NCBI GenBank assembly: GCA_947625515.1
Contig: CANQOO010000006.1
Location: forward strand, 1,139 to 65,138
DNA: 64,000 nt
Direction of reading: 5' to 3'
Source: an uncultured Clostridia bacterium
Lineage (GTDB): Bacteria > Bacillota > Clostridia > Christensenellales > UBA1242
In this document: positions 21,329 through 49,573 of the stretch, piece by piece
Layout: each line of letters opens with the position of its first letter
Numbering within the stretch: the stretch's first letter is position 1
Position numbers and translations under genes: made by a program
Notes under the pieces: generated by a model
What the model saw: the letters and a program-made list of their open reading frames with translations, nothing else
Told to the model about the DNA's origin: nothing
Database searches by the model: none

Positions 21329-21357
21329 TTGTAAAAGTTTGTCGTTTAATATATAAT
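21329..21357 (+). promoter_or_regulatory. Candidate sigma-A promoter of the giant gene (TTGTAA-17 nt-TATAAT) ending 7 nt before its ATG
   Basis: TTGTAA 21329-21334, a 17-nt spacer, then TATAAT 21352-21357. The ATG is at 21365 with no Shine-Dalgarno in between. Confidence 0.35.
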
Positions 21358-21364
21358 ATATATC

Positions 21365-24300
21365 ATGAAAAATTTTCTGCTGGCTCTTTGTGCAATATTT
21401 ATGGTGTTCGGCATTGCCTGCGGAACTACTTTTTTGACGGGCTATGCCACAGTGGTGTTGGCAGAAGAGTCAGCCGGAGAGTCGACCGATGGTTCAACAG
21501 ACAATTCAACTGGCGAGTCCACTGACGGGTCCAGCAGCGAGACCAATGGTGATTCCACAGACAATTCAACTGAGGAGTCCAATGGCGAATCCACTGGGGA
21601 GACCACAGACGGTTCAACAGATGATTCAACAAATGGGTCAACTGAAGGGTCAGGCGAAGAACCGGGCGATGTTGAGGCGATGGCATCTGGCTATGCGACA
21701 GCGATTGACGAAATTTGGGACGGCGGCTATACTCGTTTTGACCCGATTCTGCTGCAAAAGCTTATACAGCAGGTTGCAGGACAAACCTACGGGCTATCAA
21801 GGCTTCCAAGCAGCACAATCACCGCGACAGACATGCGCTCCAGCACTGGTGGTGGCAAACAAAATGGACAAGATATCAAAGTGAAGTTTGGTGGAGTGAA
21901 CTGGACCCCTGTGTATCTTTCTAAAGACACAAACGGCAATGTGATTTTGACGTTGTGGGAAACAGATGTTTTGTCATCAAATTACACAACAAATTGGCAA
22001 GCCAGTCTGTCCAACGTTAATTCAAGCACATACCCCGCAAACATGTATGCGACTTCAAGGGCTGCAATTGCATTGCTTAACAATGCAGGGTCATATTTGG
22101 CCTATAATGGAAGTTCGTTCATAAACTATACCCAAACTACAACGGGTACATATGCAAAATTTACGATGTCTTCGGCTACTGGAAGCCTTGTGAGGTATTT
22201 GGTGACCCCCGACAAAATGAGCTGGCAAACCTCACAGTCTACATCAAACACGGGTGCACCAAAGACTGGCAAAATCACTGGCGGTGGACCTGGGGTGGTA
22301 ACTCCGTCGGAATCGGGTGCAGATGCGATCACTCCAGGGACAACAACGTATTATAACAGGTCAAACGAGGCCGTATCTTCTGGCGGCATTCTGTTCTATA
22401 GTGCAGATTATAACTATTTGAGCAAATTTCCAACCTATGCTGGAAAATGGGGATCTCATTACTTATGGCTGCCTTCGCTTACTGAGGCGGGCGGGACTGC
22501 AACATATGCACAGGACGTGACGGGTGCTGGATTGTGGGGATTGTCAGCAACACAGCGAAAAAGCACAAATAGCTCAAGTGGATCTTGGTATCGATCTGCT
22601 TCTATTGACAGTCAAGCATATGCTTATTATATCGACTACTCGACCGACAAGTTTGACAAAGCCAATGTGTGCACTGCGACGTACGACATTCGCCCTGCGA
22701 TTCACCTTAATTTGACAGCTGCTGTCAATGATGCTAAGACAGTTGTAACATATGACCCCAATGGCGGAACAACAAAGTCTGGCGAGACATACAATGTTAC
22801 GGTCAAGTGTTCGGACACATATAGTTTTCCTTCCATCGAACCAGTAAGAACAGGCTACGATTTTGATGGCTGGTATCCTTACTCCGGAAGCAGCGGCCAA
22901 GAACTGACAACTTCAACCCCGTTACGCACAAGTGAGGATCACACTGTTTATGCACACTGGTCGGGGAGTAACTACAGCATCGTCGCGAATGCGAACGGCG
23001 GAACATTCCCGTCCACAAGTGTGAGCGGGTGGAGTGTTTCCGGATCTGATCGTGCAAAATTCAGGGTGGCATACGACAGTTCGCTTGGTAATTTTCCTGC
23101 AGACCCGACAAGAAATGGCTGTATTTTCGCGGGGTGGTACACCACACCTTCCAGTGGTGGGTCGCGAATTACGGTGGATACAATTTTGGACGGCTCGGGG
23201 ATTTCGTTCGATCACACCTACAAGATAGGCACCATTTACGCCCGGTGGACCTTGCTTGATTACAGGATTAACTATAACACTGCCGGAGGGAACATAACTT
23301 CGTCGAGTTACACCACATCATACAATATTGACTCCACCATCACACTGCCGTCGGCATCGAGGACGGGCTACACTTTCGATGGCTGGAAGGTGACGCAAAA
23401 TGACGCAACTTCGTCGTGGTCAACAACCACAACATATTTGGCAACCGACAAGCTGACCGATATGTATGGCAATGTCACATTGATAGCTCAGTGGACGCCG
23501 AAAACCTACACCGTCACGCTTAACACAAATGGTGGGGCTTGGCAGACCGGCACCACAACGGGGACAAGGACGATTACTGTAACATATAATTACTCCATGC
23601 CAACCGCTTACAGATCTCCAGCCGGGCAAGCGTGGGAGGCTCCGTGGAGGACAGGCTATGACTTTGCCGGTTTCTATGACACTCCAAGTGAAAGCGGAGG
23701 CACGCAGTATTATAATGCTTCACTGTCAGAAGAACATGTCTGGAATAAGACGCAAGATGATATCTTGTATGCACGCTGGACACCAAAAGAATATACCATC
23801 ACCGCAAACATGAACGGCGGCACCATTGCAAACAATGCAACAGACCTGAATGGGTGGAAATATTCATCCACCTCCGCCGCGACACACAGTTTTGGCTACA
23901 CAAGCATCATCAGTCCGCTGCCAAAGCCGACGCGGAATGGCTATGAGTTTGCGGGGTGGTATTCCACAAAAGCATACGCAGACGCGGCAGGCTCTAGTGG
24001 CAAAATCAGCACAACCACACTGACCTCATCCACCCTGAAACTTAGCGAGGCCAACATCGGCGACTTGAACGATACCGCAAAAACCGGCACTATCTATGCT
24101 GGCTGGACGGAGATTGAATACACCATCACCTATCAAGTGAATGGCGGAAGTTTCACAAGCGGCACTTCGAGTTCGCAGACCTATAAAATCACATCCACCG
24201 CCAAACTGTACGACGCTTCCAAAATCACAAAAGCGGGCTTCGCCCTGTCGGGCTGGCTTGCGTCCAATTCGGAAGGCAGTTGGTCGGACGGGCAAACTTA

Positions 24301-27300
24301 TGGTGCGGGATTGTCATTGAGTGGAAAATATGGCGATGTCACCCTGACCGCACAGTGGACAAACACCCAAATTAAGATTGTCGCCGACCTCGGCGGTGGG
24401 ACCATTGCAAGTGGCAGCCTCAATGGCTGGACCAACAGCAGCGGAGTCATTTCCAAAAATGTGACCAATGCCACCACTCAGCTGGGCGGTCTGCCAACGC
24501 CGACCAAAAGTGGCTATTCTTTCACTGGCTGGTTTACGGCAAGCACCGGCGGCACCCTTGTGGGCTTCACAACCAGCACGCTGACGGCGTCAAATTTGAA
24601 TATTGTCGCAGCCACTCAAACCGCCACAATCTACGCTCGCTGGGTGCACACGCCTGTTGACGTGACCTACAACGCAAATGGCGGAACTTTTGGCAGTTCA
24701 AATACGCTGACGCAAAAAGCGGCTGTGGACAACTATTATGGCCAGATGAATTTGTATAATCCGATATCTGGCGAACTGACCCTTGCACAAGGCGTGTTAT
24801 ACAGCAGCAGTGCACATACTTTTGCTGTCACTAGAAAAGACAACCGCTCCGGAAGTGCAGAAATGTATGCGGGTTTCAGTAGTGCTTACAATGGAAATGT
24901 GTTTGTTCAAAACACAACATACACAGCCGTGTTGAAAATTCTTACCTACAATGTAACTGCAAGCAGTTCGATTGCTGTCTGCGTTGCTTCAAATGGCAGA
25001 GATGTTTGCAGCAGCGATGTCAGAATTAACTTTTCTGGCACTGGCACTTATGTCAAAACTTTCACAACCAAATCAAATTTTTCTTCAATAGAATCAAATT
25101 TGCGTTCGCTTGTTTGCATTCCTGTTGGGGCGAATGTCTCAAGTCTCATGTTCACCCTGTCTATTTTCTTGGGGGACATCTCAAGCCAAATCAACACGGA
25201 CAGTTTCATATATGAAGACCCAAACACCGCACCAAGCATCACATATGCAGACGGCAAATCTCTGCCAACACCGACGAGGGCGGGCTACACCTTCAAGGGC
25301 TGGGCAACAACTGCGGGTGCAACAACTCCTAATGTGACAGTTGCGACCAAAGTCACCGACTCGAGTGCAAGAACGCTTTACGCCGTTTGGGAGGCTCAAT
25401 CTCACACGCTGACGGTTGACAAAAACAATGCAACAACCTACACGGGACAAAATTCCTACACGCTTGAAACTGACCAGGTTCAAGCAATTCCGGCACCGCA
25501 AAGGAACGGTTATACCTTTGCAGGCTGGTCTGTTTCTCCGTCTGGCACTGGCACAATTGTAAGTGGCAACAATGTCACAATGGGCTGGGCGGATGCAAAA
25601 ATCACCGCCACCTGGACGCCGCATATATACACCATCTCGCTGAATCAAGACGATGCAGATGCAAAAGGCACGCAGACGGTTTATCTGAAATATGCCGATG
25701 GGCTTTATACGAGCAAGGCTTGCTCCACTTCGGACAAACTGACAAACGGAAAACTCACCTCTCTGCCGACCAAGGCTGGCTATGATTTTGACGGCTTCTG
25801 GACGGGCAGCGGCGGTGTTGGCACACAAATTTTTGACAAGAGCGGGGCTTTTGTCTCGAACTATACTTTCTATTATGGCGAAAACGGCTCGACCAAAACG
25901 CTTTATGTGAAATGGTCAGCAAAAACTTTCACTGTCACATATGACCCAAATGGCGGCACGCTTACCCCGTCAGGCACGGCAAGTTCCTTCACAATCACAT
26001 TTGGTGATGCATATGGCACGCATGTGACTGGCGTAAGTGCAACAAGAACGGGCTATAACTTCTTGGGCTGGTGCCTGAACGAAAGTGCAGGCAATGGCAC
26101 GGGAGCGGTGCTTAAATCAACAGACACTGTCACAACCGCAGGCGACCACTATCTCTACGCCAAATGGGAGGCGAAATCTTATACAATCACCCTCAACGGC
26201 AATGACGGAAGTGTCACTCCGACCAGCGTGAAGGTGGTGTATAATGACAGCAATGTTTATGTTGTCAACTCATCCAATGCCGCCAAAATCACGGCGAGCA
26301 GAGATGGATATAATTTGCTTGGCTTCTATTTCCACAACGGCTCAACTTCACAGGGGCCAGTGATGGATGCCAACGGCAGACTTGTGGCAAATGTCAGCGG
26401 CTTCACTGGGGCAAATGGCATTTGGACCAGGGATGGAGGCGTGACCCTCTACGCAGAATGGAGTGCACAGTCAAGGACGGTCATCTTGAACGCAAACGGC
26501 AGCAAGATTGACGGACAAAACTCCATCAGCGTCACTGCAAATGTTGGGGCAGAGATTAACATCAGCGAACACACACTTGCTTCGCGTCCGGGCTATGAAT
26601 TTACAGGATGGGCTCTCGCAAGCGGCTCCGGCAACGGCACACTTACAAACGAAAACAATGTTTGGAAATATGTTGTAGGCACGGGAGAGTCACAGCAAGT
26701 GAACGCTCAATGGGCAAATCGCGTCTATTCGGTCACTTGGGACAAAGGTGCTGGCACGCTTACAAGCCCAACCACGCTCTATCTTAAATACGACGTGGGC
26801 TTCTTCTCAGATAAATCCTGCCAGACGAAGTTCACCGGCAAGGTGGCTTGTGCAAGCAGAACTGGCTACTCCTTTGCGGGCTATTATTCTTCGCAAACTG
26901 GCGGCACACAAATTTTTGATGGAACTGGGGCTTGCGTGACGACAAACTTCACATTCTATTCGGAAGCAACCGATTCCGTCACTCTCTATGCAAGATACAA
27001 CGCACTTTCATATGATGTCACATTTAACCTTCAAGGCGGGACATGGCAAGACGGCACAACGGAAACAAGGAAGGTGCACGCAACATTTGACTCTGCTATG
27101 CCATCGTCCTTCTCAACCGGAAAAGTGCTGGAAGCACCAAAGCGAGCAGGCTATACTTTTGCCGGCTTCTATGACACCGAAAATGGCAAGGAAGGCAACC
27201 AATATTACACCTCTTCCATGACAAGTGCAAACGCGTGGGACAAGGCACAAGCAGCCACACTGTATGCACACTGGACTCCACTTACTTACACTCTTGTGTT

Positions 27301-39300: not shown

Positions 39301-42300
39301 ACTTAGACGCATCACATATACCTTGACACTTAACAAAGAAAGTCTTTCGGACGAAAGTTTGGACGACTTCACGGCAGAGATTGTCAGCAGTCTGGACAGT
39401 GCCGCATTGAAGGAAACAACTTCTGGCACAAACAGGACATATGCCGTCAAATTTGGTGCAGAAATCAACCTTGTTGTGAAGACCAAAAATGGCTATGCAT
39501 TGGCAGACTTCCGTGCCGACCCAGAGACAACAATCGTCAAAGGCAGCGAAGCACAAGAAAGCATGTGCTTTACAGGCACCTTCACTTTGCAAGAAGATGT
39601 GACAATCAGCGTGGAACTCACTCCGCTGGATAGAACTTTTGCCATTGAATATTATGTTGAAAAGCTCAATTCTTCTGGCGAGGGCGACAAGGAAAATGAC
39701 TATCAGTCAGCGGACGACGAAATCCTTAAAGACGGCACCAAAGTTTCTGAGGCTTCTGACCACAAGACTGGCGTTGGCAAGACGGGGATGTCTCCGTCGC
39801 TCTCTGCCAGTGACTTGTTGGAAATTGTCGGCTTCACATATGAATCATATGAAGCGGACGGCGTTATCAAGGCGGACAACACTTCGATTGTGAAAGTGTA
39901 TTTCAAGCGTGACACAATCGACCTCACCGTTTCCATGACGGAAGGCGTGAAAGATGTCACTGTTTCCACAGACTATGCCGTTTCAAAAACGTTCGACTCC
40001 ACAGGAGTGTTCAGACTTAAATTTGGCGGCACGGCAACATTCTCTGCGACCTTGTCACATGACGGATATGAGCTTGCTGGTTGGAGCAAAGACGGCGGCG
40101 ATTTGCAGAAAAATGCCACCTATTCCATCACTGCTGGCACAGTGATTGATGGTGAAGAACACAAAATCATGCCAGCGGCAAGCATCCAGGCGGTTGCACA
40201 AGGCAAAACTTTTGTCATCACATTCAAAAAATTTAAAACAAGCACAGCCAAAGAGGAAATAAGCACACAAAACGTTGTGTTCAATCAAAGGACGTCACTG
40301 GACCCGAACCCATTCAAAAATGACGGATTTGGCTTTGTTGGCTGGGATATGCTTGACGAAGAGGACAACCTTTCGATTGGCACATATTCCAACATGGCAG
40401 ACTTCACTTTGACGGAAGCAATTGGTGCAAGAAATGTCACCATGGTTGCCAGATGGAGTGCGGTGATATATAAGGTTAAATATGACCTCAACGGTGGACG
40501 CCTTAAAGAAGACGCCGACATTGGTCCAACTATGCAGGGCGAACTTGCGGCAGAATTTGAGGTGACCTTCACAGAAGAGGCTCACCCGCTTTTGAACGGC
40601 AAGGAAAATCTTGTTCGCAGTGGGCACACTTTTGAAGGCTGGGACGTTGTCATTGAAGGCTCCGTCAGCAGCACTTTGGCGGTGGATGCTGACACCTTCC
40701 CTCCACTTTCTTCTGTGGCAGGACAACTTGTCACATTGCGGGCACGCTGGAAGGAGCACACCTACACTTTGGTGTATAACTCCAACTATTCCACACAAAA
40801 CCCAGATGTAAGTAAAAAGCCTGCTGACGAGACGCACATTTTCTCGACAAGCATCAAATATTCGGACGTTGTCACAATCTTGGCGGCAGCAAATGATGAC
40901 TGGACTTTTGCTCTGACGGGCTACACTTTTGCGGGCTGGTCGAAGGATGCTGGCAGCAAGACTGCACAATTCAGCAGCGGCGATACTGTCAGCGACAGCA
41001 GCCTTGTTGGCGAAGACTCAGCGGACGGCATCACTGTGACTCTCTATGCCGTTTGGACTCAAAAATCTTACACCATTCTTTATGACAAGAATGACGATGA
41101 CGTCTTTGGCGATGCCGCTGGGCAGGTGACAAGCCACACGGCACTTTATGACCAAAAAGTTGTGCTTAAAGGCACTGGCAAGGACGGAGACATTGGCTTC
41201 ACGCTGGTGGGCTATAACTTCTTGGGCTGGGCAAAATCCGCAGACGCAACAGCGGCAGAATTTGTGCTGCAAGGCGGCGAGTTTAAGCAGGTGGCTGGCG
41301 AAGGCTATATCGACGTCATCAACCTGGCAACTGGCGAAGAGGAAGACCAGTTTGTCACACTTTATGCTGTTTGGGAGGCAATCCAATACACAATCACCTA
41401 CAACGCTGGCGTTGACGGACACTTCACAGACCCTCAAAACGAGGCGGCTCAAAAGGTTGTGGTGACTTACACCATCGCTGAGAAGGTGACCCTCTTGACG
41501 GATGCGGACTTTGAAAAGCAAGGATATGTTTTGACAGGCTTTGAGCTGGAAGTGGCGGAAGGAGCGGACGGAAACTGGAAGAAAACATTCAGTGGAACCA
41601 TTCCGCTTGGCAGCGATGTGCCGGAAGGCACATATGGAACTGTCACTTTGAATGCCGTTTGGCAGGCGGACGACTTTACATTGATTGTTGAATATGTTTT
41701 GCCTGAGGGGGCAAGCTCGGCAAAGCCTCAATCACACACCCAAACGGTGAAATATGAAGAGGCGTTCTCTGTGACCTCGCCGAATGTGGATGGCTACACC
41801 GCCAAAATGGCAGAAGTTGTTGGAACGATGAACTATTCATCCTTCCCAGACATCGACTTTGAGCACAAAACCCTCACAATCACTGTGGAATATTCTCCAA
41901 ACCGATATGAAATTCAGTTTGACCTCAACGACGCGGCAGGCTCGTCAAGGGCAACGCCGCTGACAAGAGCGTCGGTGTTTGTAGATTTTGACAGCACTTT
42001 TGCTGATGCTTATCTTTGGGACGAAGCGAATTCCACAAAATCTTCAGCATATGGATTGGAAAAACCTGGACGCACGGGATACGTGTTTGACACCTGGATG
42101 TTTGACGGCATCAAGATTGACAACGGCACAAAAGTGACAAAAGATGTGCTTTCAGGCGTGGCAATCGGTTCTGTCACAACACTTGTGGCAACTTGGACGG
42201 CGGAACAATCTCAATTTAAAATTCGCATCGGATTTGAAAAACTTGACGGCTCTGACTTTGATTTTGAAGAAGATAAGTTTGGCGACGCAACCACCGACCA

Positions 42301-45300
42301 AAACATTTCTGAGGCGGAAGTGCTTGCTGCTCTTGAATGGGCAGCAATGAAGCCGGAGCCGGGCTATGAGATGCCAACCATGGAGATGACAAATGACGGA
42401 AAAGCGGTGGCAAATGTTGGCGACGCAATGACTGTTGTGACAATCAAATATAGGCGTGCAAACATTTCCCTCACGCTGACCAAAGACGCGGCAGACGTTG
42501 ACATCACATTCTACGCCGAAAGCACAAACACCGCAGGAGAAGTGCAATACATTCAAGATTTGCATAATGGACAATATTTGGTTCGCTTTGGTGCCACCGT
42601 TGTTGTGCATGCAGAATCTCACAACTTGGGCTATGAAATTTCCTTCACAAGCATTCCGCAAAACAGCGGCTGGAAAGAGGAAATCTCTGGTGCAACAGGC
42701 ATGGCAACATTCACAATGGGCAGCGAGGCGACCACAATCACACTTGCAAAACAAAAACGAGCATTCACAATCACATATCACAACTTGAAGAATCCTTCCG
42801 ACAAGGTGCAAGTTCAGGGAAATGATGACGACAAGATTTACTATGACACAGAAGTGCAGTTGCTTTCAAATGAAACTATCGGCTTCACATTCGCAGGTCA
42901 TCACTTCATTGGCTGGTCAACGCAGCCGGACGGAGGAAAAGAATATGAAGCTGGGGGAACATTCATCCTACACACATATCCAGAAAGTGGCAACGTGGAT
43001 TTGTATGCTGTTTGGGAAGCGGGCGGACATCGCATCACCATTTCGGTGACCGCCGGCATTGAAACAAGCGGGCTTGACATTGTTGTTGGCGAGCAGACCT
43101 ATCATTTTGAAGATGGACAAAACAGCGTTTCCGTTTCGGTCAGATATGGCGACACGCTGACGCTGACTTTGACGGATGAAAACATCAAGGGCGGATATAA
43201 ATTTGACGGCTTTGTTGTTGGCAGCGAGGAGTTGGACAAGACATTGATGAGTCTGTCGCATCTGGTTGTCGGCGATGAAAGCATTCAAATTCGTGCTGTC
43301 GCAATGACGACGCCATTCAAGGTGACATACAAAGTTGAAAATCTCGCACAAAACGACTTTGAGGTCTATGGCGAGTCGGTTGTGGCATATGGCACCACCG
43401 ATTCAGTAATTTCCACACTTGCCGATTTAAGCGAATTAAAGACTTCATCAGGCGGACAAGTGCTTATTGCCATCCCTGGCTTCGACCCATTGAGATTGCA
43501 AGAAAGCGTGCAAATTCTCTATCAGGCAGACGAAGATTCTTACAGCGAAGTTGTCATTCTCTATCGCCGCCTGTCCTTCACTTTACAGTTGGACACCACT
43601 GGCGTTTTGGGTATTGTTGACTTCCAGCCGCAAGAAATAGAGGGGCAAATCAGCCCAATGGATGATTCAAACACCAAAACATATTCCATCTTGTTTGGCA
43701 GCAAGTTCAATTTGCTTCTTGGCGTGCATGCGGGATATGAATTCAAGCCATTTGATTTTGAAATCACTGTCATTTCACAGGACGGCAGAACGCTTTATGT
43801 GCTCACGGATGACGACATACAAAAAACTGCAAACAAATATGTTTATTCATATGAAGGGAAAGAACTTTTCAGCCTCAGTCTCACAGAAAATGAGAGCGGA
43901 AACTTCACCTTCGAGTTTGACAGCATGCCGGCATACAGGCTGATAATGAAGCCGAAGACATCTGCACGCGACTTTGTTGTGACCTATCACAAAAATGATG
44001 GGCAAGAGCCAGAACAGACCCTTTCTGGCTCCGTCACATACGGAACACCATTTTCACCAATGGATTTTGCCGACACAGGTTGGCAAAAAGACGGTTATTC
44101 CTTCGTTGGCTGGGCGTTCTCGCTTTCCGACCTTGCCGCAGATGAACGCGGAGAGCTTGTGGTGTATGATTTTGCATCGGATGCAAACCTGACGCCAAAC
44201 TTCTTATATTCTCAGCCAGTGCACCTGTATGCTATCTGGCAGGCAGGCACGGCAGAATATCATGTGGAACATTATTATCAACAGCTTACTGGCGACGATT
44301 TGACTGCCGATTTCACTTTGGAATATACAGACACAAACTTTGCTCATGTGGACGACTTTGTGACAGTCAGTGAATATCACAACAAGAACGGATTCGTGAT
44401 TGACGAAGTTCGCTCCATATTCTCCGGCACTGTCATTGAAAATGTCGGCGAAGGAGAAAAGATGACGATGTTGGTGCTTAAAGTTTATTATCTCCGCGAC
44501 ACCTACACCGTGAACATCACATATGACGAGGGGCTGACCGGCGTGAAGGTTTCCGAGCGAGATTTTGGCATTGTCAGCCAAAGTGCGGATGCCGAAAACA
44601 GAACACTTACGTTGCAAGTGCTTTACGGAGTGAACATTGGCTTTGAAGAATGGACATATGCGGAAGGCTATGAAAACGCTCAAATCAGCGGAGTGGCACT
44701 GAAAGAAGACAACACCTTTGATGTGCCTTATCTTGCAGAAAAACGCTTGGATGTTTATATAACCACTTCAACAAAATCGTTCACCTTGTCATATGAAGGC
44801 GGCGACCGTGAAGATGGCACAGTTGAAATTGAGGGCAGCATGTCCAGCGTCAGTGTGAAATATCTTGACAGCATCACCCTTTCGGAGTGTTTGTTCACAA
44901 GAGAAGGCTACACTTTTGCAGGCTGGGAGATTGACGGAGAGATTTTTGATGCTCAGACGTCGTTCTCAATTGACCTGCCAAAAGACTATGTCGCAAAGGC
45001 AACTTGGACGGCAAATTCTGGCATATCATGGTATGTGGATGTCTTCTTGAAAGATATCTCTGGCAACTATGCTCAGCAAGACGGGGCTGATGTTGCCAGC
45101 CGCAGCGTTGCTATGAGCGGCAGCACAGACGAAATCATCACCCAAGAGGCGGTGATGTCGGCATTTGCCGGATTTGCCGAAGCGGAAGGATTTACATTCG
45201 AAAAAATCACCGCTGAGGACGGAACACCATTTGACGACAAAGTGCTGAGAATCAGCCCAGACGGAACAACTCACGTGAAGGCATATTATGTTCTTAAATC

Positions 45301-48300
45301 ATTCAATGCAAGCTTCACCTTCAAGGGTGAGGATGACCTGCCTGTTGGCGTGGAAAATGCCGAAGTTTCATATCAACGCACCGGCACGGAAGATGCCAGC
45401 GAAAGCTTCGCAACCGACCGCACGCTTTCCATTGAAAACACGGCAAACATTTCTGCCACACTCACATTCCAGCAAGGCTTTGAGCTTGACCAAATTGTCA
45501 TCTCTTATGCGGGCGGCGAATTGCAAACAATTTCTGACGACCGCTCTGAGAAAACTCAACAATTCACTTTCACATATCAAATGCCGGCACACGATGTGCA
45601 GATTGAAATTCGCACGCGAGTGGTGCAATATCACATCATCTTTGTGCGAAATCTTCCAACCGACACAGACGAGGTGACCTACCCGCAGGAAGTTAGTTAC
45701 AAAAAGCCTTACATTCTTTCCGCTGACCCAACATTCACAATGGTCTATGGTTACAGTTTCCGCGGCTGGGCAGAAAGCAAGGAATATGAAGAGGGTGCAC
45801 CTCTCTATCAAAACGGGCAACGCTTTGAAAGTTTTGACCAAACTGGCGATTTGCAACTTTATGGCGTTTGGGAAACATTTGTCTATAACGTCAGATATAA
45901 TCGCAACGGCGGCAGTTTGAAGAATGAAGAAGATGTGCCAGCCGTCCAGACCTATGCATTCAACACAAACTTTGAACTCATCATTTGGGACAAATATTTT
46001 GCTGCACCGGACGGCTTCACATTTGCTGGATGGTCGCTTGACGGCGTCAGCATGGATATTGGCGAGATTGGCTCTTCTGAAGAGTTGACCGGTCAGACAA
46101 GCGGAATTTTCGTGGATGCGGAAGGCCAATATTGGGCAAGAAATCTTGGCGAGCGAAACGGTGACGATGTGACAATCTACGCAATGTGGAAAGAAATCAC
46201 CTACACCGTCACAATTAAATCCACCGAAACTGGTGACAGCCACAAAGTTGTCAATGCCGCACGCGGCGGATTTGAATTCTCATATTCTGAGGATGTTGTG
46301 CTGCCAAGTTTTGAGTCCTTGAAGTGGACCCCACCTGAAGGGAACAGATTTTATGCTTGGAAATACACCCAAGACGGCGAAGAACAAATGATTCGCTGCT
46401 CGCCAGCCGAAGAATTCACTCTCAGCAAATTGACCAAGCAGGCTGGCGAAGTGGAAATCTTTGTTGTTTGGACAACTGGCAAATCCACTGTCCATGTGAA
46501 ACTTCTTAAAGAGCTTATCACTGGCGGATATGAGGACCCTAAAAATGAAAACTTGATTATGTTTGACGCCGAATTTGACGTTGACGCCACCTTGACAAGC
46601 GAACTTGCATACGAGAACTTCATTGTGGCAGCAGATGGTGCAGGGCATGCCTACCTTCAAATTCCAGGCTTCCAGTTTGACCGCTCCTTCTCCGACGAAA
46701 TTGTTGTTGATTTGGCAAACGAAAACAACATTATTGAAATCCACTATTGCCGAGTCTTCTTCAATGTGACATTCCAGTTGGATGAAAGCGTTGCAAGTGC
46801 AGAAATTTCATCCAGTGTTGCGGGGCAGTTTACATCGCAAGGAAATGTTTGGTCGGTGAAATTTGAAGATGTCATCACCTTGCAGGCAACTGCCGCAGAG
46901 GGATATGAAACTCCAAAATTCTCCTTCACTGGCTTTGACGGCATTGAGGCAACTCTGGACGTAGGCGGCACGCTCAAAATTTTGGGCGACATTGTGCTGA
47001 AAGTGCAGGCTCAGCCAAGCGACGGAACGGCATATTCAATCAAAATCTTCAAGCAGACGCTAAGCCTAGACTACTTGGCTGAACCAATAACAATCGGCGG
47101 CAGCGGCAGAACGCTTTCGGACATCGATATCGACGAAGTGCTTAGACTGATTGAGCAAGCAGTTCTCACAAATGAAGGGCTGAAAGATTTGAAGGTTGGC
47201 TTTGAATATTCTGACTTTTCGTTTGCAATTGGCGATGGAAAAATCCTTGGCAACGGTTCGAGCGTTGTTGAGGTGAGATATACACGCAAATCCTTCCAAG
47301 TTGAAGCAACAACAAATAAGCCAGAAGCATTTGACGGCTTCATTTCAAGAGGCGAACATCTCTATGAAAGCGTTGTTGAATTGTCGTTTGTTCTGCTGCA
47401 AGGCTTCAAACTTGAAGAATCCAGCTTTGTCATCACGGATGAAGACGGACTTCCAGTTTCCATTTCTGATTTTTCGACGCAAGAAAACGAGTCTGGAAAG
47501 ACAACAGTCACATTGAGGTTCAATATGCCTGCCAAGGCTGTGAGTGTCACTGTCAGCCCAGAGGCTTTGCCTGCAAACTTCACTGTCACATATTGGTTGC
47601 AAAACACAAAACTTGATGACTATGAGCTGAATGAAGATTTGTTGGCTCAGGCACAGGTTGTAGGGCAAACGGGAGACATCATCACAAGAGCGATGCTGTT
47701 TGACGCAGACAAGTTTGACAGCTTTGAAGAGCTTGTTGCCTCAATCAAGGGCTTCTCGTTTGTTCGCACAACGGCAGACGACGGGTTGCTCAGGATTTCC
47801 GGCGACAACAGCACAAATGTGGATGTATATTTCGACAGACAGATTGTGGACTTCACATTGAAGTTCACCGACCCGATGAGCGGCTTTGACTCTGCATCGC
47901 TGCGTGTTATGGCAGAGGGCAGCCAAATTGTTGGCATTGCTCCGCCACTGTTGTGGGAAGCGGCATATGGGCAGTCCATCAGCATTTCTCTCGACATCTT
48001 GCAAGGTTTCTCGTTGGGCGGCTTCTTTGTGGGCGGCGTAAACGCAAACACACTTGACAACTTTGTTGTTTCGGACAAGACACTCACCTTCACGCTCGGA
48101 CTTGAAGGAATTGAGATTGAAATTGTCATCAATGCCAACACCGACACTGAATTTTTGGTGGAATATTGGAAAGAAATCTTAGACACGCATGACTTCAACA
48201 TGTTTGCATCCAAGAAAGACACCGGCATGACCAACAGCGTGCTGGATAAGGAAACAATTTCCAGAACGTATGTTCGCAATGCTGAAACATTCTTGGCAGA

Positions 48301-49573
48301 GCAATATCGTCAAGAAGACTTCTTTGGCAGCGAGTTTGCTTACTTCGAGGCGTTCCTTGGCGATGCGGACATTTCCACTCGCGTTGTAATTTCGGGCGAC
48401 GGTCGCACCGTGATTAAGTTGTATTTCGCACTTGTTGAAATTAAAGTGGAAGTGCAATACAACGACCGTCATGTGCTGGCAGTTGAAATTTCACCGCAGC
48501 AGGAAGGTTATAAGTTTGGCAGCCGGATTTCCGTCAGTGCCACTCAGCGGCAAGGATATCTGATTGTGGGCTGGCAAGTGGACGGAGCTAGCGTGTCCGG
48601 CGTGCAAACTGATGACGACTTGCAGGTGCTGACTTTGACATTAAACTACGACCACGACATTGTCATTTCCATCCAGTCGGATGTCGGCACGGCAAACTTT
48701 ACTGTGGAATATTATTTCGAATTGATTGACCAGGATGAGGACGAACTCCGCGATATTCTCATACGCTCTGGCCGCACGGAAAGTCAAATCAATGTTCGGG
48801 CTTTGGCTGAGCCGTTTGAGGGATATGTCTATGACCAATCTCGCAGCGAGGACAGAATATATTACGTTGAAGGGGACGGCTCGACGGTTGTGAGAATTTA
48901 TTACACCCTCATTTGGGTGGAGATGCGTGTGGCGTATCAGACCGGCATTGACGCTGTGGACGTGCGAGGTTATTTGCGGGATGACGGACTGGAATTTGTC
49001 AACGGCAACTCGTCCGGCACAGTGCTTTACTATCGTGTCAAATATTCCAAACAGCTCAAACTTACAGTGTCCACCGAGCGTGGCTATGTGTTTGCGGGCT
49101 GGTCGCTGACACTTTCTGAGGGGAAAAAGCAAAAGCTGGAAAATTCTTCGGCAATCACCGGCTTCCTGTTCAACGCCCCTGCCCAGGATTTCTTGCTGAC
49201 TGCCGAAACGGACAACTCCATTGTGACAATTTTCTATAATCCAAACAACGGCACTGGCGAAATTATGGAAATTCAGGTTAAATTTGGCGAGACCTTCCAG
49301 TTGTGGCACAATTTGTTCACAAATGGGAAAAAGAAATTTATTGGCTGGGCGACATCGCCGGACGGAGAAATTGCCTTCTTCGACGACGACATCCTCACCG
49401 CAGATTTCCACGGCACACTTGTTTTGTATGCCATCTGGAAAGAGACGACCAGTTTGATGTGGCTCTGGATTCTTTTGATTGTGCTGGCAGTGCTTATCAT
49501 TTTGATTGTTCTTTCAATCTGGCTGGCAAGACGGCGTAACGAATCGAAGAACAAATATATGAGCAAGCAATAA
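21365..49573 (+). CDS. Giant (9402 aa) tail-anchored cell-surface repeat protein: signal peptide, S/T/D/E/G-rich linker, DUF6273-like head, more than 50 Listeria-Bacteroides (Flg_new) repeats plus other beta-sandwich modules, C-terminal TM helix
   Basis: One uninterrupted 28,209-nt ORF with N-terminal MKNFLLALCAIFMVFGIACGTTFL. A head region ends ...GSWYRSAS...YDIRPAIHLNL. By eye I count more than 50 G(Y/F/H)x(F/L)xG(W/F/Y) cores, each closed by (L/I)YA.W (for example TGYDFDGWY...VYAHW). The C-terminus is LMWLWILLIVLAVLIILIVLSIWLARRRNESKNKYMSKQ with no LPXTG. Confidence 0.9.
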   Translation: MKNFLLALCAIFMVFGIACGTTFLTGYATVVLAEESAGESTDGSTDNSTGESTDGSSSETNGDSTDNSTEESNGESTGETTDGSTDDSTNGSTEGSGEEPGDVEAMASGYATAIDEIWDGGYTRFDPILLQKLIQQVAGQTYGLSRLPSSTITATDMRSSTGGGKQNGQDIKVKFGGVNWTPVYLSKDTNGNVILTLWETDVLSSNYTTNWQASLSNVNSSTYPANMYATSRAAIALLNNAGSYLAYNGSSFINYTQTTTGTYAKFTMSSATGSLVRYLVTPDKMSWQTSQSTSNTGAPKTGKITGGGPGVVTPSESGADAITPGTTTYYNRSNEAVSSGGILFYSADYNYLSKFPTYAGKWGSHYLWLPSLTEAGGTATYAQDVTGAGLWGLSATQRKSTNSSSGSWYRSASIDSQAYAYYIDYSTDKFDKANVCTATYDIRPAIHLNLTAAVNDAKTVVTYDPNGGTTKSGETYNVTVKCSDTYSFPSIEPVRTGYDFDGWYPYSGSSGQELTTSTPLRTSEDHTVYAHWSGSNYSIVANANGGTFPSTSVSGWSVSGSDRAKFRVAYDSSLGNFPADPTRNGCIFAGWYTTPSSGGSRITVDTILDGSGISFDHTYKIGTIYARWTLLDYRINYNTAGGNITSSSYTTSYNIDSTITLPSASRTGYTFDGWKVTQNDATSSWSTTTTYLATDKLTDMYGNVTLIAQWTPKTYTVTLNTNGGAWQTGTTTGTRTITVTYNYSMPTAYRSPAGQAWEAPWRTGYDFAGFYDTPSESGGTQYYNASLSEEHVWNKTQDDILYARWTPKEYTITANMNGGTIANNATDLNGWKYSSTSAATHSFGYTSIISPLPKPTRNGYEFAGWYSTKAYADAAGSSGKISTTTLTSSTLKLSEANIGDLNDTAKTGTIYAGWTEIEYTITYQVNGGSFTSGTSSSQTYKITSTAKLYDASKITKAGFALSGWLASNSEGSWSDGQTYGAGLSLSGKYGDVTLTAQWTNTQIKIVADLGGGTIASGSLNGWTNSSGVISKNVTNATTQLGGLPTPTKSGYSFTGWFTASTGGTLVGFTTSTLTASNLNIVAATQTATIYARWVHTPVDVTYNANGGTFGSSNTLTQKAAVDNYYGQMNLYNPISGELTLAQGVLYSSSAHTFAVTRKDNRSGSAEMYAGFSSAYNGNVFVQNTTYTAVLKILTYNVTASSSIAVCVASNGRDVCSSDVRINFSGTGTYVKTFTTKSNFSSIESNLRSLVCIPVGANVSSLMFTLSIFLGDISSQINTDSFIYEDPNTAPSITYADGKSLPTPTRAGYTFKGWATTAGATTPNVTVATKVTDSSARTLYAVWEAQSHTLTVDKNNATTYTGQNSYTLETDQVQAIPAPQRNGYTFAGWSVSPSGTGTIVSGNNVTMGWADAKITATWTPHIYTISLNQDDADAKGTQTVYLKYADGLYTSKACSTSDKLTNGKLTSLPTKAGYDFDGFWTGSGGVGTQIFDKSGAFVSNYTFYYGENGSTKTLYVKWSAKTFTVTYDPNGGTLTPSGTASSFTITFGDAYGTHVTGVSATRTGYNFLGWCLNESAGNGTGAVLKSTDTVTTAGDHYLYAKWEAKSYTITLNGNDGSVTPTSVKVVYNDSNVYVVNSSNAAKITASRDGYNLLGFYFHNGSTSQGPVMDANGRLVANVSGFTGANGIWTRDGGVTLYAEWSAQSRTVILNANGSKIDGQNSISVTANVGAEINISEHTLASRPGYEFTGWALASGSGNGTLTNENNVWKYVVGTGESQQVNAQWANRVYSVTWDKGAGTLTSPTTLYLKYDVGFFSDKSCQTKFTGKVACASRTGYSFAGYYSSQTGGTQIFDGTGACVTTNFTFYSEATDSVTLYARYNALSYDVTFNLQGGTWQDGTTETRKVHATFDSAMPSSFSTGKVLEAPKRAGYTFAGFYDTENGKEGNQYYTSSMTSANAWDKAQAATLYAHWTPLTYTLVFETDDGTDRTSVTGKAYGSLFTAAELSLTASTRTGYILEGWYNDSLFTTKLTTSLAFDSTHATFDNIGKAGSNATIYAKWVGMTYTLTYDLDGGTGVTNHTKVYGTKFTADDLKTPTKNGFTFDGWYNNSSYTTKLTTSLAFDSSTATFAEIGKENTVATIYAKWSANTYNITYQANGGNFTSGSTTSKKVGYEPDSLVLYGTSDIARAGYTLVGWTASNASSTASNWENGHTYGVGADLKSALMYGDVTLTAVWEGNLIKVNLNGNKGSGSTGPTFSDTKYQNSTQQYIYIRYGSKEVYAERSTANLHTPVGNALSAIPGISRKGYSFVGWFTAASGGTQLTGSDGKITVNWTFETADTATIYAHWTPNTYTITLNKGDGVTDDVTFWNSSTNTTISSTVYVAFDGTKFYSSTVLTEENVILPVAKRNGYSFDGWALDGTVVTNKLGSLLNAWTSDNTPPTFTLKATWVANKYRVCLNTGVEDATFDESSVNGWSRDSSNRYLAYRTMTFEEAFNLPGVDATGFTDGTNFITYNGYRFLGWTTNESLAKTYYSGLYSDDDLKDLLAGTLVLKDAKISKQLDGEPNILIQTLYAVWQKINYTIEYFESDGTTKINTLSPTHYNVEGQVDTRSGDVITSSDFTLPAHVKTGYSFLGWTPVKTAGNWASITYPAGGTSLKGMYGDIQLKAVWQQNVYKVTLNLGSHSFADASFVPSGSNASGFKTNDSENAYIYFQFMSSKIYAGRSSETYPNTPSNELSAIKAKALGKNPTSGALDAYIFAGWSHNGTKIIDKDGHLIKGVSGYTDANGNWIHAGDDIMLTAQWDAATFNLTLDNGNGTGGATQATVTFGKNQVTFNQTSFAPTLAGHTFAGWTVDNTNVVLSSGGALQAYDGYVQASSTSSTGTTYVWTHAANGVTLYAKWTAKQYTVTVHANDGGTFADSSGGWSVSGDSTTASKNVGYQDALTGLPALSSLIDTSLPTTNHEKYVFTGWFTAAIGGTFLGFDLSEKTVQSIFGSDSQLTRNIYAHWVEKPFDITYNANGGKFDGDSETLTDVGVTSDYYGKKNLYNPTNGALSLDATVKYDTSTHMFSVTRDNTSGSAAINYDSSFFTAYDGSVFAPNTTYTAVLNVITYNVEHSSSATGSVAVHVATNGLDVAYFAGTDVRILISAVGTYVQSFTTRADFSSISNNLRSLVAVPTGFNIKNLQFRLSIFLGDLTKRIDTNKFTYEAPGAKPDIVNATGKFLPQPTRAGYDLLGWATKNNASAADINVGTQISTTNTLYAVWKPTESTITYNFNGGDAKTSTSGGKYPSSVGYNIESSNTLYGDQEVARTGYKLLGWKPQANSGSWLASTTYSPNETLRGKYGNVTLVAQWENISTDIELNLVLGDSSVKADAGHNGYTKHKATYDKEVEKIGTVVGCQDLMDNKFSKPSGVGDVAAWKTGYKLLGFYTKEDGGEMIFNADGTVVNKEVYEGTTQWLGRSGGKTVWKYIPTNGVVTLYAHWQAIEYSLKLVFETGIDRMHVQIVTDGKTTRQDYREDTTINVAYDSSITITAYAKDGYQIQEMQAKAGSGNFAQVSTSTTYEYEFNFTNALFGNVAVMPEAGSEAATYQVKAVAKPLDVDYTVKVYRQQQNGEYSASTDITGNKAQADSSLTLKQVQDLAAANVGASLTAFTYAGNKYSTKSRQIPDIFDNANSFTVQGDGSLVIHLYYSTKQFTIEYDLGLAGANGKWVNDNAASPKKLQTYTFYDAITLRNAADVHWAGHVLVGWKIEKAVGTWKVTTEPYEPGQTVEKGQYGTDGENVKLIAVWDMEEYSISYDVDQDDDKTGKWAAGYSAPKTYAFGTETTLPVGSNVERAGYTFDGWTEQILLDEWHSGKIVDGQFVANGTGDAGVYSNAVTLRANTIYTLVDSGSASVAGWKIYIASKGTWLNAPQQISISGDAGQEFVVYVVFEGGLENATRHDLRFVNDNKIAKISDAAMGNRYYVGTWLKKNIEVLIDLNDASKGHGSTLAELAGIDDRFYIKYDTTFAYSSKSSDSPFTPLPTRPGYAFAGWWTTSGHDGNAGKQVTDDRGLLLQEWNESWISGASVDGKVTLFARWKANTYIISLAENGGHMIDYTARSGLTKEPGTTFMLEATFDQEGVFDATLYHEGYYLSLQGWRVALVENADGTSGSPGSITKDGTITKKSSTDLTHIDWTCSGTTILNLAYSGRVVLEAVWAPEFITITLNPNKEAGQSSEATVPISTIYVKTDAAFSTAVKDMEKADSVVGLVNPNTRVGYEFKGWYIISKSGKQLEVTSSTVITDDTDSEYFVDNVTDFDSTKLKYSATIYARWEAKIYDVVYETKDKDGQIKSHRIADAITFDGEYKLLTEAAVIALGGWTEEDVKGWTFLSWKPQNPWTGSQATYDAGTTLTGYAYDGDLVLRAERQENTYLVVYDADDEKLLSTATPISGSENPVTKQFLYSASVDLSSKYNLQGYTFDHWEIERNGKRLTVVTEVTDEGSQILNTRLVEGTISGKFETEGETKITLYAVWTPAQVNVTLSYYGQTISAARNTVTTWSKDNFVLIQERTDTVKLDTGTNLKTILEEDIKKDSPLYFKNFTGFTKLGMHEANGKADIIVQPDGSLHVYLLYYRNANNLKVNLGEGILSVTAQYGGSQQSGSVASGVVTFTGIFFEETVVLSAKLDAGYESATFVPKKPSTLSIAENSFTMPDEEVQIDALPTKGLVSYRVNLFTMGLDGQTYSLHQTFTRQGTLGSTITISAADFLLEGFTYFAGHSSNHLTDTLQAKFGEDGSVVGTTEFALYYTRNQYTITIDAKGGTYDDDGTISTNPAFDKTTNQYKNVYYGATITLSVPTYAGRTFVGWTKGTGSVGDIEENVFTVGAGAATLSAQWIERYYQLVLDVGTPSNVYVRFGDANLYRTLDGTPTSYTLRDVVVPTATKTGYRLDGWDYVQSGSANVHVIDGNGSLQHLATQFTDASGKWTYVGTLETINLTAQFSPIEIEVTFDKNVKTSYPTDKVSGMPQTITVVFDDTYGGGTAGDGKNAAVFTNGPERSGYQFLGWFLSEDGTDQITATSKVDKTTSHTLYAHWEALENNVTFNFENIQKPTGEQKAKSHDKDFEFTLQAEPGFGLPGSIRVEIAGELMTNGVGYDYSSETGLLTIHKEYINGDIIITAAGVAGENKVKFDVKFLTAEGENNAVSGQEYVATLHRVTGYDLPQTITITMEGHEGELSVGTHYSYEIAADGESATITIKQNVITGDLTISATGVVRKVTVTFNANGGMVGGEKQIVVKDVEYGTAITPFPAQPTWDGYDFVDWYLVGTAPAVGQIPTATKFDSSTTLQGKECEQNFTLYAVWQYLTVQVNVVNRSGNGYEGKVSGNVDGMEPFTSASLHIDQVVTLSHTENEGFTFKGWKISINGEESDFADDSFEIEATHVMDGGTITFTAYYTIVGTILVITDQEVDPAGGSAIFDGESSVKTIDFEGPNQTVNVTATAQHGFSFVGWFADADALNPVSPNDKASGAHVVGGGGSFTIYAKFVAVKYYITYQAGEGSILPDILDEHDRKEFTVKDKIQLLDQPNISLTGRKLVGYDITVAQEGEEFENWTTKFPGKRISRTDDGFDVLEAMYGDVTLTAVWEAETYTLILNTNIAANTTGKVTIEDNISEISVKYLDKYENATANGKKVGLLAGKVKRTGYDFVGWSLTASGEKVLAESDTVEITSNGILYAVWRAATSEYRVEYWLEDLDGSFHLDTYYDYVTSHSTTDERKYTTTTDTTAKIVQETFFGFELDLTHEEDGKVAAVESGIVVANDDGNMLVLKLYYTRLSFTLSVTLPAKGVESATLTEFAQDGTASEPKQITSTQNSFSIKYYQSLKLDVVIADGYEFGGIYQGGEIWSDATSKTFNLQGDLNLRVTIAGTEIDYSVRFDYESLTQAGTFAAKSTKTGLKAEIDTRVGYADVENVIREELQKVDAKGFEYDSLTEIVIGAKEEQNVVVVKLRRITYTLTLNKESLSDESLDDFTAEIVSSLDSAALKETTSGTNRTYAVKFGAEINLVVKTKNGYALADFRADPETTIVKGSEAQESMCFTGTFTLQEDVTISVELTPLDRTFAIEYYVEKLNSSGEGDKENDYQSADDEILKDGTKVSEASDHKTGVGKTGMSPSLSASDLLEIVGFTYESYEADGVIKADNTSIVKVYFKRDTIDLTVSMTEGVKDVTVSTDYAVSKTFDSTGVFRLKFGGTATFSATLSHDGYELAGWSKDGGDLQKNATYSITAGTVIDGEEHKIMPAASIQAVAQGKTFVITFKKFKTSTAKEEISTQNVVFNQRTSLDPNPFKNDGFGFVGWDMLDEEDNLSIGTYSNMADFTLTEAIGARNVTMVARWSAVIYKVKYDLNGGRLKEDADIGPTMQGELAAEFEVTFTEEAHPLLNGKENLVRSGHTFEGWDVVIEGSVSSTLAVDADTFPPLSSVAGQLVTLRARWKEHTYTLVYNSNYSTQNPDVSKKPADETHIFSTSIKYSDVVTILAAANDDWTFALTGYTFAGWSKDAGSKTAQFSSGDTVSDSSLVGEDSADGITVTLYAVWTQKSYTILYDKNDDDVFGDAAGQVTSHTALYDQKVVLKGTGKDGDIGFTLVGYNFLGWAKSADATAAEFVLQGGEFKQVAGEGYIDVINLATGEEEDQFVTLYAVWEAIQYTITYNAGVDGHFTDPQNEAAQKVVVTYTIAEKVTLLTDADFEKQGYVLTGFELEVAEGADGNWKKTFSGTIPLGSDVPEGTYGTVTLNAVWQADDFTLIVEYVLPEGASSAKPQSHTQTVKYEEAFSVTSPNVDGYTAKMAEVVGTMNYSSFPDIDFEHKTLTITVEYSPNRYEIQFDLNDAAGSSRATPLTRASVFVDFDSTFADAYLWDEANSTKSSAYGLEKPGRTGYVFDTWMFDGIKIDNGTKVTKDVLSGVAIGSVTTLVATWTAEQSQFKIRIGFEKLDGSDFDFEEDKFGDATTDQNISEAEVLAALEWAAMKPEPGYEMPTMEMTNDGKAVANVGDAMTVVTIKYRRANISLTLTKDAADVDITFYAESTNTAGEVQYIQDLHNGQYLVRFGATVVVHAESHNLGYEISFTSIPQNSGWKEEISGATGMATFTMGSEATTITLAKQKRAFTITYHNLKNPSDKVQVQGNDDDKIYYDTEVQLLSNETIGFTFAGHHFIGWSTQPDGGKEYEAGGTFILHTYPESGNVDLYAVWEAGGHRITISVTAGIETSGLDIVVGEQTYHFEDGQNSVSVSVRYGDTLTLTLTDENIKGGYKFDGFVVGSEELDKTLMSLSHLVVGDESIQIRAVAMTTPFKVTYKVENLAQNDFEVYGESVVAYGTTDSVISTLADLSELKTSSGGQVLIAIPGFDPLRLQESVQILYQADEDSYSEVVILYRRLSFTLQLDTTGVLGIVDFQPQEIEGQISPMDDSNTKTYSILFGSKFNLLLGVHAGYEFKPFDFEITVISQDGRTLYVLTDDDIQKTANKYVYSYEGKELFSLSLTENESGNFTFEFDSMPAYRLIMKPKTSARDFVVTYHKNDGQEPEQTLSGSVTYGTPFSPMDFADTGWQKDGYSFVGWAFSLSDLAADERGELVVYDFASDANLTPNFLYSQPVHLYAIWQAGTAEYHVEHYYQQLTGDDLTADFTLEYTDTNFAHVDDFVTVSEYHNKNGFVIDEVRSIFSGTVIENVGEGEKMTMLVLKVYYLRDTYTVNITYDEGLTGVKVSERDFGIVSQSADAENRTLTLQVLYGVNIGFEEWTYAEGYENAQISGVALKEDNTFDVPYLAEKRLDVYITTSTKSFTLSYEGGDREDGTVEIEGSMSSVSVKYLDSITLSECLFTREGYTFAGWEIDGEIFDAQTSFSIDLPKDYVAKATWTANSGISWYVDVFLKDISGNYAQQDGADVASRSVAMSGSTDEIITQEAVMSAFAGFAEAEGFTFEKITAEDGTPFDDKVLRISPDGTTHVKAYYVLKSFNASFTFKGEDDLPVGVENAEVSYQRTGTEDASESFATDRTLSIENTANISATLTFQQGFELDQIVISYAGGELQTISDDRSEKTQQFTFTYQMPAHDVQIEIRTRVVQYHIIFVRNLPTDTDEVTYPQEVSYKKPYILSADPTFTMVYGYSFRGWAESKEYEEGAPLYQNGQRFESFDQTGDLQLYGVWETFVYNVRYNRNGGSLKNEEDVPAVQTYAFNTNFELIIWDKYFAAPDGFTFAGWSLDGVSMDIGEIGSSEELTGQTSGIFVDAEGQYWARNLGERNGDDVTIYAMWKEITYTVTIKSTETGDSHKVVNAARGGFEFSYSEDVVLPSFESLKWTPPEGNRFYAWKYTQDGEEQMIRCSPAEEFTLSKLTKQAGEVEIFVVWTTGKSTVHVKLLKELITGGYEDPKNENLIMFDAEFDVDATLTSELAYENFIVAADGAGHAYLQIPGFQFDRSFSDEIVVDLANENNIIEIHYCRVFFNVTFQLDESVASAEISSSVAGQFTSQGNVWSVKFEDVITLQATAAEGYETPKFSFTGFDGIEATLDVGGTLKILGDIVLKVQAQPSDGTAYSIKIFKQTLSLDYLAEPITIGGSGRTLSDIDIDEVLRLIEQAVLTNEGLKDLKVGFEYSDFSFAIGDGKILGNGSSVVEVRYTRKSFQVEATTNKPEAFDGFISRGEHLYESVVELSFVLLQGFKLEESSFVITDEDGLPVSISDFSTQENESGKTTVTLRFNMPAKAVSVTVSPEALPANFTVTYWLQNTKLDDYELNEDLLAQAQVVGQTGDIITRAMLFDADKFDSFEELVASIKGFSFVRTTADDGLLRISGDNSTNVDVYFDRQIVDFTLKFTDPMSGFDSASLRVMAEGSQIVGIAPPLLWEAAYGQSISISLDILQGFSLGGFFVGGVNANTLDNFVVSDKTLTFTLGLEGIEIEIVINANTDTEFLVEYWKEILDTHDFNMFASKKDTGMTNSVLDKETISRTYVRNAETFLAEQYRQEDFFGSEFAYFEAFLGDADISTRVVISGDGRTVIKLYFALVEIKVEVQYNDRHVLAVEISPQQEGYKFGSRISVSATQRQGYLIVGWQVDGASVSGVQTDDDLQVLTLTLNYDHDIVISIQSDVGTANFTVEYYFELIDQDEDELRDILIRSGRTESQINVRALAEPFEGYVYDQSRSEDRIYYVEGDGSTVVRIYYTLIWVEMRVAYQTGIDAVDVRGYLRDDGLEFVNGNSSGTVLYYRVKYSKQLKLTVSTERGYVFAGWSLTLSEGKKQKLENSSAITGFLFNAPAQDFLLTAETDNSIVTIFYNPNNGTGEIMEIQVKFGETFQLWHNLFTNGKKKFIGWATSPDGEIAFFDDDILTADFHGTLVLYAIWKETTSLMWLWILLIVLAVLIILIVLSIWLARRRNESKNKYMSKQ

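Follow-up and report, generated by a model that had tools for sequence, protein, structure and literature searches.

By definition, a fibrillar adhesin has a tip that adheres, a stalk of repeats and an anchor; Flg_new units have been labelled as stalk domains in this class (10.1101/2021.12.07.471604). Giant Clostridia proteins of 10,000-30,000 amino acids (aa) that contain Listeria-Bacteroides repeats have also been described from mammalian gut metagenomes (10.1101/2023.11.21.568195). Here we describe a 28-kb gene that occupies positions 21365-49573 of a 64,000-nt stretch of DNA (contig CANQOO010000006.1 of assembly GCA_947625515.1; hereafter the window, to whose first letter all positions refer). 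The gene is intact, and the domain architecture and topology signals of its product can be read along the whole chain: a hydrophobic N-terminus, a non-repeat head, a very long stalk of tandem modules and a C-terminal hydrophobic segment. Although very large, the giant protein can be recognised as an example of the giant adhesins known from gut Firmicutes. We read it, with a probability of roughly 0.6, as a Sec-exported, membrane-anchored fibrillar adhesin with a DUF6273-related ligand-binding head.

As in Firmicutes fibrillar adhesins with Flg_new stalks (Monzon, Bateman and colleagues), a non-repeat N-terminal tip is followed by a tandem stalk and a C-terminal anchor, and the protein is among the longest of its genome. 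Indeed, both a long tandem stalk of known stalk domains and a surface anchor were found. Unlike in the usual members of the class, this anchor is a plain transmembrane (TM) helix with a basic tail instead of an LPXTG/sortase signal, and thus lies outside the catalogued anchor domains and sortase motifs. In addition, the tip is DUF6273-related and not among the listed adhesive domains of the class, and the stalk is far longer, with at least 59 Flg_new units. The giants of West-Roberts et al. resemble the present protein in gut origin, giant size, Listeria-Bacteroides repeats and a proposed binding function. They differ from it in that the present protein is slightly below 10,000 aa, belongs to a different, probably Bacilli lineage, and has no YG, dockerin or LRR domain in Pfam scans. 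What is unusual here is the scale of the Flg_new array on such a head, whose relatives carry at most four units, together with the TM anchor and two orphan domains nested in the stalk. The gene and the parts of its product are as follows.

21329..21357, +: promoter-like site TTGTAA-17-TATAAT, matching at 10 of 12 positions
21365..49573, +: giant open reading frame (ORF), 9,402 codons plus stop
21365..21463, +: N-terminal secretion signal, aa 1-33, predicted from sequence and hydropathy
21464..21667, +: acidic low-complexity linker, aa 34-101 (68 aa), 97% S/T/E/G/D/N
21668..22741, +: globular head (distal tip), aa 102-459, about 360 aa, from family search, alignment and AlphaFold model
22463..22711, +: DUF6273-like C-terminal part of the head, aa 367-449 (Pfam PF19789)
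22742..32140, +: distal stalk, aa 460-3592, a near-pure tandem array of Flg_new (InlB B-repeat) units, 28 of them strong
24764..25177, +: first nested orphan domain, aa 1134-1271 (138 aa), splitting the Flg_new profile
30524..30946, +: second nested orphan domain, aa 3054-3194, splitting the Flg_new profile
32141..49441, +: proximal stalk, aa 3593-9359, with 31 strong Flg_new units, 13 copies of module B and about 7 Flg_new_2-like modules
45020..45640, +: pair of module B and Flg_new_2-like module, aa 7886-8092, modelled by AlphaFold (pLDDT 84)
49454..49528, +: C-terminal TM helix LMWLWILLIVLAVLIILIVLSIWLA, aa 9364-9388, predicted from hydropathy
49529..49570, +: basic tail RRRNESKNKYMSKQ, read from the sequence

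Integrity of the giant gene

The ORF starts with ATG and contains no internal stop, as the original prediction of a single uninterrupted frame had stated. Its start at 21365 is fixed, because an in-frame stop at 21347 precedes it and 21365 is the first start codon past that stop. Such an ORF might be a chimera or a collapsed array of repeats produced by the assembler, or else a relic that is not expressed. It comes from a short-read metagenome in which the depth of each run is low (3-5x), joints at repeat motifs with sides of just 22-32 nt occur in a few contigs, and the exact protein was not found in a collection of 15 billion proteins. However, a random 28-kb frame is not expected to stay open. 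Moreover, no 25-mer is repeated inside the ORF, and therefore a short-read assembler meets no repeat ambiguity. The longest pair of similar DNA repeats in the ORF reaches 104 nt at 82% identity, and on these two grounds collapse of the assembly was ruled out as unlikely.

Independent assemblies point in the same direction. The giant-gene sequence is present in four runs of one rabbit-gut metagenome sample, and a variant of it in one run of a second rabbit-gut study. Contigs over the gene were compared in three of the four same-sample runs; the short contigs from these runs are identical to the window and together cover every 500-bp bin. The variant is 90-99% identical to the window. Third codon positions account for 48 of its 80 listed substitutions, 43 of 69 changed codons are synonymous, no new stop appears, and the sole multi-base indel is an in-frame deletion of 3 nt at 42043-42046. 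This pattern is what would be expected of a coding sequence under purifying selection. An artefact or a dead gene is thus very improbable, and we conclude that the giant gene is real and intact and lies on the chromosome of an uncultured rabbit-gut Bacillota. As a separate observation, the deletion at 42043-42046 and the scattered, mostly synonymous sites indicate strain-level diversity of the fibre.

Stalk and ends of the protein

The stalk makes up 95% of the giant protein. More than 50 Listeria-Bacteroides repeats had been predicted, and annotation with the corresponding profile models had been proposed as a check; this bore the claim out, with all scores above the cut-offs. Pfam Flg_new (PF09479) gives 384.8 and 215.2 bits for the two halves of the protein against a cut-off of 27 (E = 1e-117 and 8.7e-65), and TIGR02543 (List_Bact_rpt) gives 22.8 bits on the last 400 aa against 20.95. 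Individually, 22 stretches (17 + 5) pass by the Pfam model alone. By a self-trained iterative model, 63 units were found, 59 of them with E < 1e-5, against none in five shuffles and the reversed sequence. All Flg_new units carry the signature G-Y-x-F-x-G-W. Their pairwise identity has a mean of 22% and a maximum of 51%, and the repeats are, by the look of their sequences, old and divergent.

The prototype of Flg_new is the B-repeat of InlB from Listeria monocytogenes. Its structure (2Y5P) matches the array by sequence at E 1.4e-4, and the G-Y-x-F-x-G-W signature is conserved between them. InlB has one B-repeat beside an LRR domain and GW anchor modules, whereas the giant protein has at least 59 units and neither LRR nor GW. 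The identity as an internalin was ruled out, since no LRR family was found in Pfam scans of the whole protein.

From aa 3600 on, a second module of about 90 aa, here called module B, occurs in 13 copies with the pattern Y-x-V-E-Y-Y...D-G-x-x-V-x-x-Y-Y-x-R. Flg_new_2-like modules usually come after its copies (Pfam Flg_new_2, E 5.4e-14), and their model merges with Flg_new on iteration. The best match in PDB to the modelled pair is 3I57, a type-2 repeat of Lactobacillus reuteri Mub (E 8e-5, prob 0.99), followed by Gram-positive pilins. Both Mub and the giant protein are very long surface proteins of gut Firmicutes with two-domain beta repeats. Unlike Mub, the giant protein has no sequence match to MucBP (PF06458), even at E <= 1 on the scanned non-Flg_new segments, and the structural TM-scores are low (~0.3), so that it is the individual domains that resemble each other, not their arrangement relative to one another. 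Mub is also LPXTG-anchored. The "other beta modules" of the original prediction were therefore found, and they are mainly Mub/MucBP-like and Flg_new_2-like.

Two domains of about 140 aa, 55% identical to each other, appear to be nested inside Flg_new units of the distal stalk; they are read as nested because the Flg_new profile is split around them. The second of them lies within the best internal duplication of the protein (aa 992-1354 against 2893-3274, 47.5% identical). Neither has relatives in Pfam, PDB sequences, PHROG or an index of 5.8 billion proteins. They may be extra binding modules.

Strong hydrophobic segments are only two, aa 1-33 and aa 9364-9388. The N-terminus, MKNFLLALCAIFMVFGIACGTTFLTGYATVVLA followed by EES, has a basic start (K at position 2) and a long hydrophobic core, and the junction between VLA and EE is a likely signal peptidase I site. 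A lipobox-like GIAC at aa 16-19 is weak when compared with the pattern [LVI][ASTVI][GAS]C at the end of a signal peptide: it is non-canonical at position -3, and the hydrophobic stretch runs on to aa 33. The linker that follows is periodic also at the DNA level (21493-21630, period 12/60), so that both the signal peptide and the S/T/D/E/G-rich linker with periodic DNA agree with the first reading. The C-terminal end reads ...KETTS-LMWLWILLIVLAVLIILIVLSIWLA-RRRNESKNKYMSKQ, in which the basic tail is placed in the cytoplasm by the positive-inside rule. Sortase motifs (LPxT[GASN], NPxTG, LAxTG, IPxTG and similar) are absent from the last 120 aa, no sorting-signal model of NCBIfam matches either, and Pfam scans of the protein gave no match to SLH or to CW_binding/choline-binding repeats. 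The claimed C-terminus, one TM helix and a basic tail in place of any LPXTG, SLH or choline-binding anchor, was thus reproduced. The term "tail-anchored" was right as a description of the topology and wrong in its strict sense: tail-anchored proteins proper are inserted after translation by their C-terminal helix and lack a signal sequence at the N-terminus, whereas a clear hydrophobic one is present here. The predicted topology is that of a type I single-pass membrane protein.

The head and its possible function

Between the linker and the stalk lies the non-repeat head, which ends in ...WYRSAS...YDIRPAIHLNL as had been noted. The 83 residues of its DUF6273-like part match Pfam PF19789, over profile positions 85-171 of 172 only. 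Taken by itself, the head scores 23.6 bits; as part of a 4,800-aa piece it scores 19.6, against a cut-off of 23.5. Among 19 head relatives, 12 match DUF6273, with a best E of 2e-11. Thus, the relationship suggested in the original prediction is probable but borderline for the giant protein and firmer at the level of the family. The accompanying idea that such a domain often caps Flg_new proteins did not hold as a rule: only 17 of the best 151 head relatives carry any Flg_new unit, and none more than four.

The head family itself is large. By phmmer against 1.84 billion cluster representatives, 526 clusters were found at E <= 1e-3, the best 38% identical. In the best 151 of these relatives, the median start of the head is residue 58, a signal-peptide-like N-terminus is seen in 113, a C-terminal TM helix in 30 and LPXTG in one. 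The stalks of other giant proteins of the family are mostly free of Pfam annotation. An alignment of 19 heads contains 27 invariant residues, including W-L-P-S-x2-E-x-G and R-P-A-x-H-L-N. No close relatives of the head were found in GTDB species representatives or JGI metagenome contigs, and no close homologue in the searched collections.

DUF6273 has been described as a C-type-lectin-like domain with the variable regions of diversity-generating retroelements (DGRs) at its C-terminus, and as that part of phage receptor-binding proteins which binds the ligand and is diversified (PMC10743442, PMC11792537). By this analogy the head is probably C-type-lectin-like. Its AlphaFold model has a pLDDT of 75 and a pTM of 0.83. 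In BFVD, the best structural neighbours of the model are phage DUF6273 proteins (E 0.006-0.05, prob ~0.9); a sequence search of PDB with the head profile gave no match at E <= 1. By its borderline match to the C-terminal half of DUF6273 and by its structural neighbours, the head resembles the receptor-binding proteins and DGR targets of phages that carry DUF6273 (tentaclins; Faecalibacterium prophage targets). Unlike them, the giant protein is cellular, its head is about twice the length of the Pfam model, no DGR lies in the window, and no PHROG matches were obtained. Since DUF6273 is recurrently targeted by DGRs with a C-terminal variable region, and the same part matches in the present head, one might suppose that the head is hypervariable in the same way. 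However, the 64 kb contain no copy of 22300-22780 that resembles a template repeat, and the scanned ORFs include no reverse transcriptase. DGR action on the head was rejected within the window on these grounds, and we regard it as extremely improbable.

From this architecture we infer export, extension of the stalk, a lectin-like fold of the head and binding of a ligand. The protein would be exported through Sec via its N-terminal signal peptide, and the C-terminal TM helix would act as a stop-transfer segment that tethers it, with the short basic tail staying in the cytoplasm. About 90 small beta-grasp-type modules (59 Flg_new/InlB B-repeat units, the Flg_new_2-like modules and 13 Mub/MucBP-like modules) would form the stalk. 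In B-repeat and Mub structures, one module measures a few nanometres. On this basis, an extended stalk would reach a few hundred nanometres (~0.3-0.4 micrometres) and carry the head beyond the envelope. There the head would bind its ligand, for which a glycan is the likeliest candidate, on mucus, on food particles or on other cells. Three features make "adhesive tip" the best reading of the head: its distal position, its conservation on many unrelated stalks and its relationship to phage receptor-binding domains.

The ligand may be of another kind. A nutrient-capture fibre would use the head and both nested domains to catch plant polysaccharide or particles from the diet and so keep the cell on its substrate, similar to scaffolds that bear carbohydrate-binding modules (CBMs) or are cellulosome-like. 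The rabbit gut is indeed a fibre-fermenting habitat, two extra orphan domains are inserted in stalk units, and any glycan would suit a lectin-like head. However, no CBM, dockerin, cohesin or glycoside-hydrolase signal was found in the giant protein or the adjoining genes, and the nested domains have no detectable relatives, which makes this function unlikely. Alternatively, the protein may be a non-specific brush or spacer on the surface, whose head has no specific ligand: for example, a steric barrier against phages, immune factors or neighbouring cells or, where the wall of the cell is thin, a mechanical link. The dominance of the stalk, whose repeats diverged to 22% mean identity while the frame was kept, would fit such a role, and thin walls are predicted for the probable lineages of the nearest relatives. 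Against this, the head family is conserved, with about 27 invariant residues. A specific function of the tip is favoured because this conserved head sits distally on many different stalks, and we hold a mere brush to be quite unlikely.

Several points weigh against the adhesin reading itself. The DUF6273 score of the head sits at the threshold. Its model matches nothing in PDB significantly (best E 0.54), and the C-type-lectin matches there, among them gp42 of Epstein-Barr virus and langerin, appear only at E 5-9; the case for a lectin-like fold therefore comes from published work on other DUF6273 proteins. Cleavage of the signal peptide is predicted, and an uncleaved or lipidated N-terminus would tether both ends of the protein. 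Support for long-range contiguity of the gene comes from short contigs and k-mer uniqueness. None of the RNA runs searched contains the giant-gene sequence.

Genomic context, host lineage and significance

The GC content at third codon positions (GC3) of the giant gene is 0.51, and that of its housekeeping neighbours 0.51-0.57. Its higher overall GC stems from second codon positions and fits an amino-acid composition rich in T, G, S and A. A recent horizontal origin was ruled out by the match in GC3 with the neighbouring genes, and a phage origin by a collection of phage DNA without a match and the lack of PHROG matches. A 612-bp AT-rich intergenic region (20753-21364), with short tandem repeats at 21013-21084 and 21217-21242, precedes the gene. 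It contains nine promoter-like sites against 3.3 in shuffles, and an Rfam search found no regulatory RNA family near the gene, this region included. The TATAAT -10 box of the site at 21329-21357 ends 7 nt 5' of the ATG. No GGAGG-like Shine-Dalgarno motif was found in the 25 nt upstream of the giant gene, while most neighbouring genes have one. Because the -10 box is so close to the ATG and no Shine-Dalgarno motif lies between, the mRNA may be leaderless.

The giant gene is preceded by nrdD, nrdG and a gene for a ZIP transporter and followed by genes for thymidylate kinase, an aminotransferase and a member of the uracil-DNA glycosylase superfamily, and uvrC. A fibre locus had been predicted next to the giant gene at 52-58 kb. 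A candidate for such a locus, of the TasA/SipW type, lies at 52341-58430, but it is not directly adjacent, as two housekeeping genes stand between. It encodes four paralogous proteins of about 220 aa, 44-87% identical, with a nearly identical signal MTTKKKLLTALS(M/L)FALVAVVAAVSVGITFAALSG. These four genes have strong GGAG sites, low GC3 (0.32-0.35) and no Pfam family match. They are followed by a 246-aa protein with a poly-Leu TM segment and then by a 402-aa protein that matches the archaeal-type/SipW signal peptidase (TIGR02228, E 7.5e-11; SipW, E 3e-8). A single tRNA-Arg(ACG) at 58574-58650 lies directly downstream of this SipW-like gene. Elsewhere in the window, a ToxN-family type III toxin gene is found at 5503-5997 (E 6.7e-37, GC 0.305), in the 350 nt upstream of which no tandem-repeat antitoxin array was detected.

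In 80 related loci kept from metagenome-assembled genomes (MAGs) of the gut, only the nrdD-nrdG block (window 15554-18551) is shared, and none of the 80 has the head, a Flg_new array or the ZIP gene near nrdD. NrdD identity is 74-85% for all but the last four of these loci. The MAGs with the nearest NrdD sequences are uncultured and stem from the guts of rabbit, goat, mouse and human; their labels read Bacilli, Clostridia, Clostridium sp., Tenericutes or Erysipelotrichaceae. Since the closest NrdD is 85% identical, the source species is not close to any GTDB r232 representative. We take such a mix of MAG labels to be typical of placeholder Bacilli orders, and the organism is a probable member of the reduced-genome gut Bacilli lineages.

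Three uncultured orders of gut Bacilli, RF39, RFN20 and ML615J-28, are predicted to be thin-walled or peptidoglycan-deficient/wall-less, and two of them to lack sortase (PMC10868615). If the placement is right, a membrane anchor would be a natural choice for this reason. The statement that the molecule projects "through the wall" is accordingly uncertain: a C-terminal membrane anchor is predicted, but the wall is in doubt in view of the probable orders of the relatives. Two other genes in the window could bear on the envelope type of the host: one at 1827-3800 (-), whose 657-aa product matches the sulfatase family weakly (33 bits) and is possibly LtaS-like, and one at 8467-9381 (-) for a low-GC beta-lactamase-family protein.

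The current picture of giant repeat adhesins is unchanged by this protein. Giant surface proteins are, however, the least understood part of gut-bacterial genomes and are often lost to assembly fragmentation, whereas the present one is complete and cleanly assembled, and its parts are separable. Its head is a defined 360-aa domain for binding and structural work, from a family of hundreds of clusters that has no solved structure, and it links the tip of a cellular adhesin to DUF6273 domains, which phages diversify for host recognition. The protein is also a case of sortase-independent membrane anchoring in a lineage whose cell envelope is debated. The predicted lack of sortase in two Bacilli orders has been read as a sign of reduced display of surface proteins. 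If the organism does belong to RF39, RFN20 or ML615J-28, a sub-micrometre fibre, anchored in the membrane and tipped with a lectin-like head, would, in a reading that is less likely than not, represent a different route of surface display, and the head family might be a widespread, unrecognised adhesin tip of the gut with a fold absent from PDB. Such cells would then devote one large gene, which by a rough estimate may exceed 1% of the genome, to a single fibre, which would present to the gut a head of the kind that phages use as receptor-binding domains.

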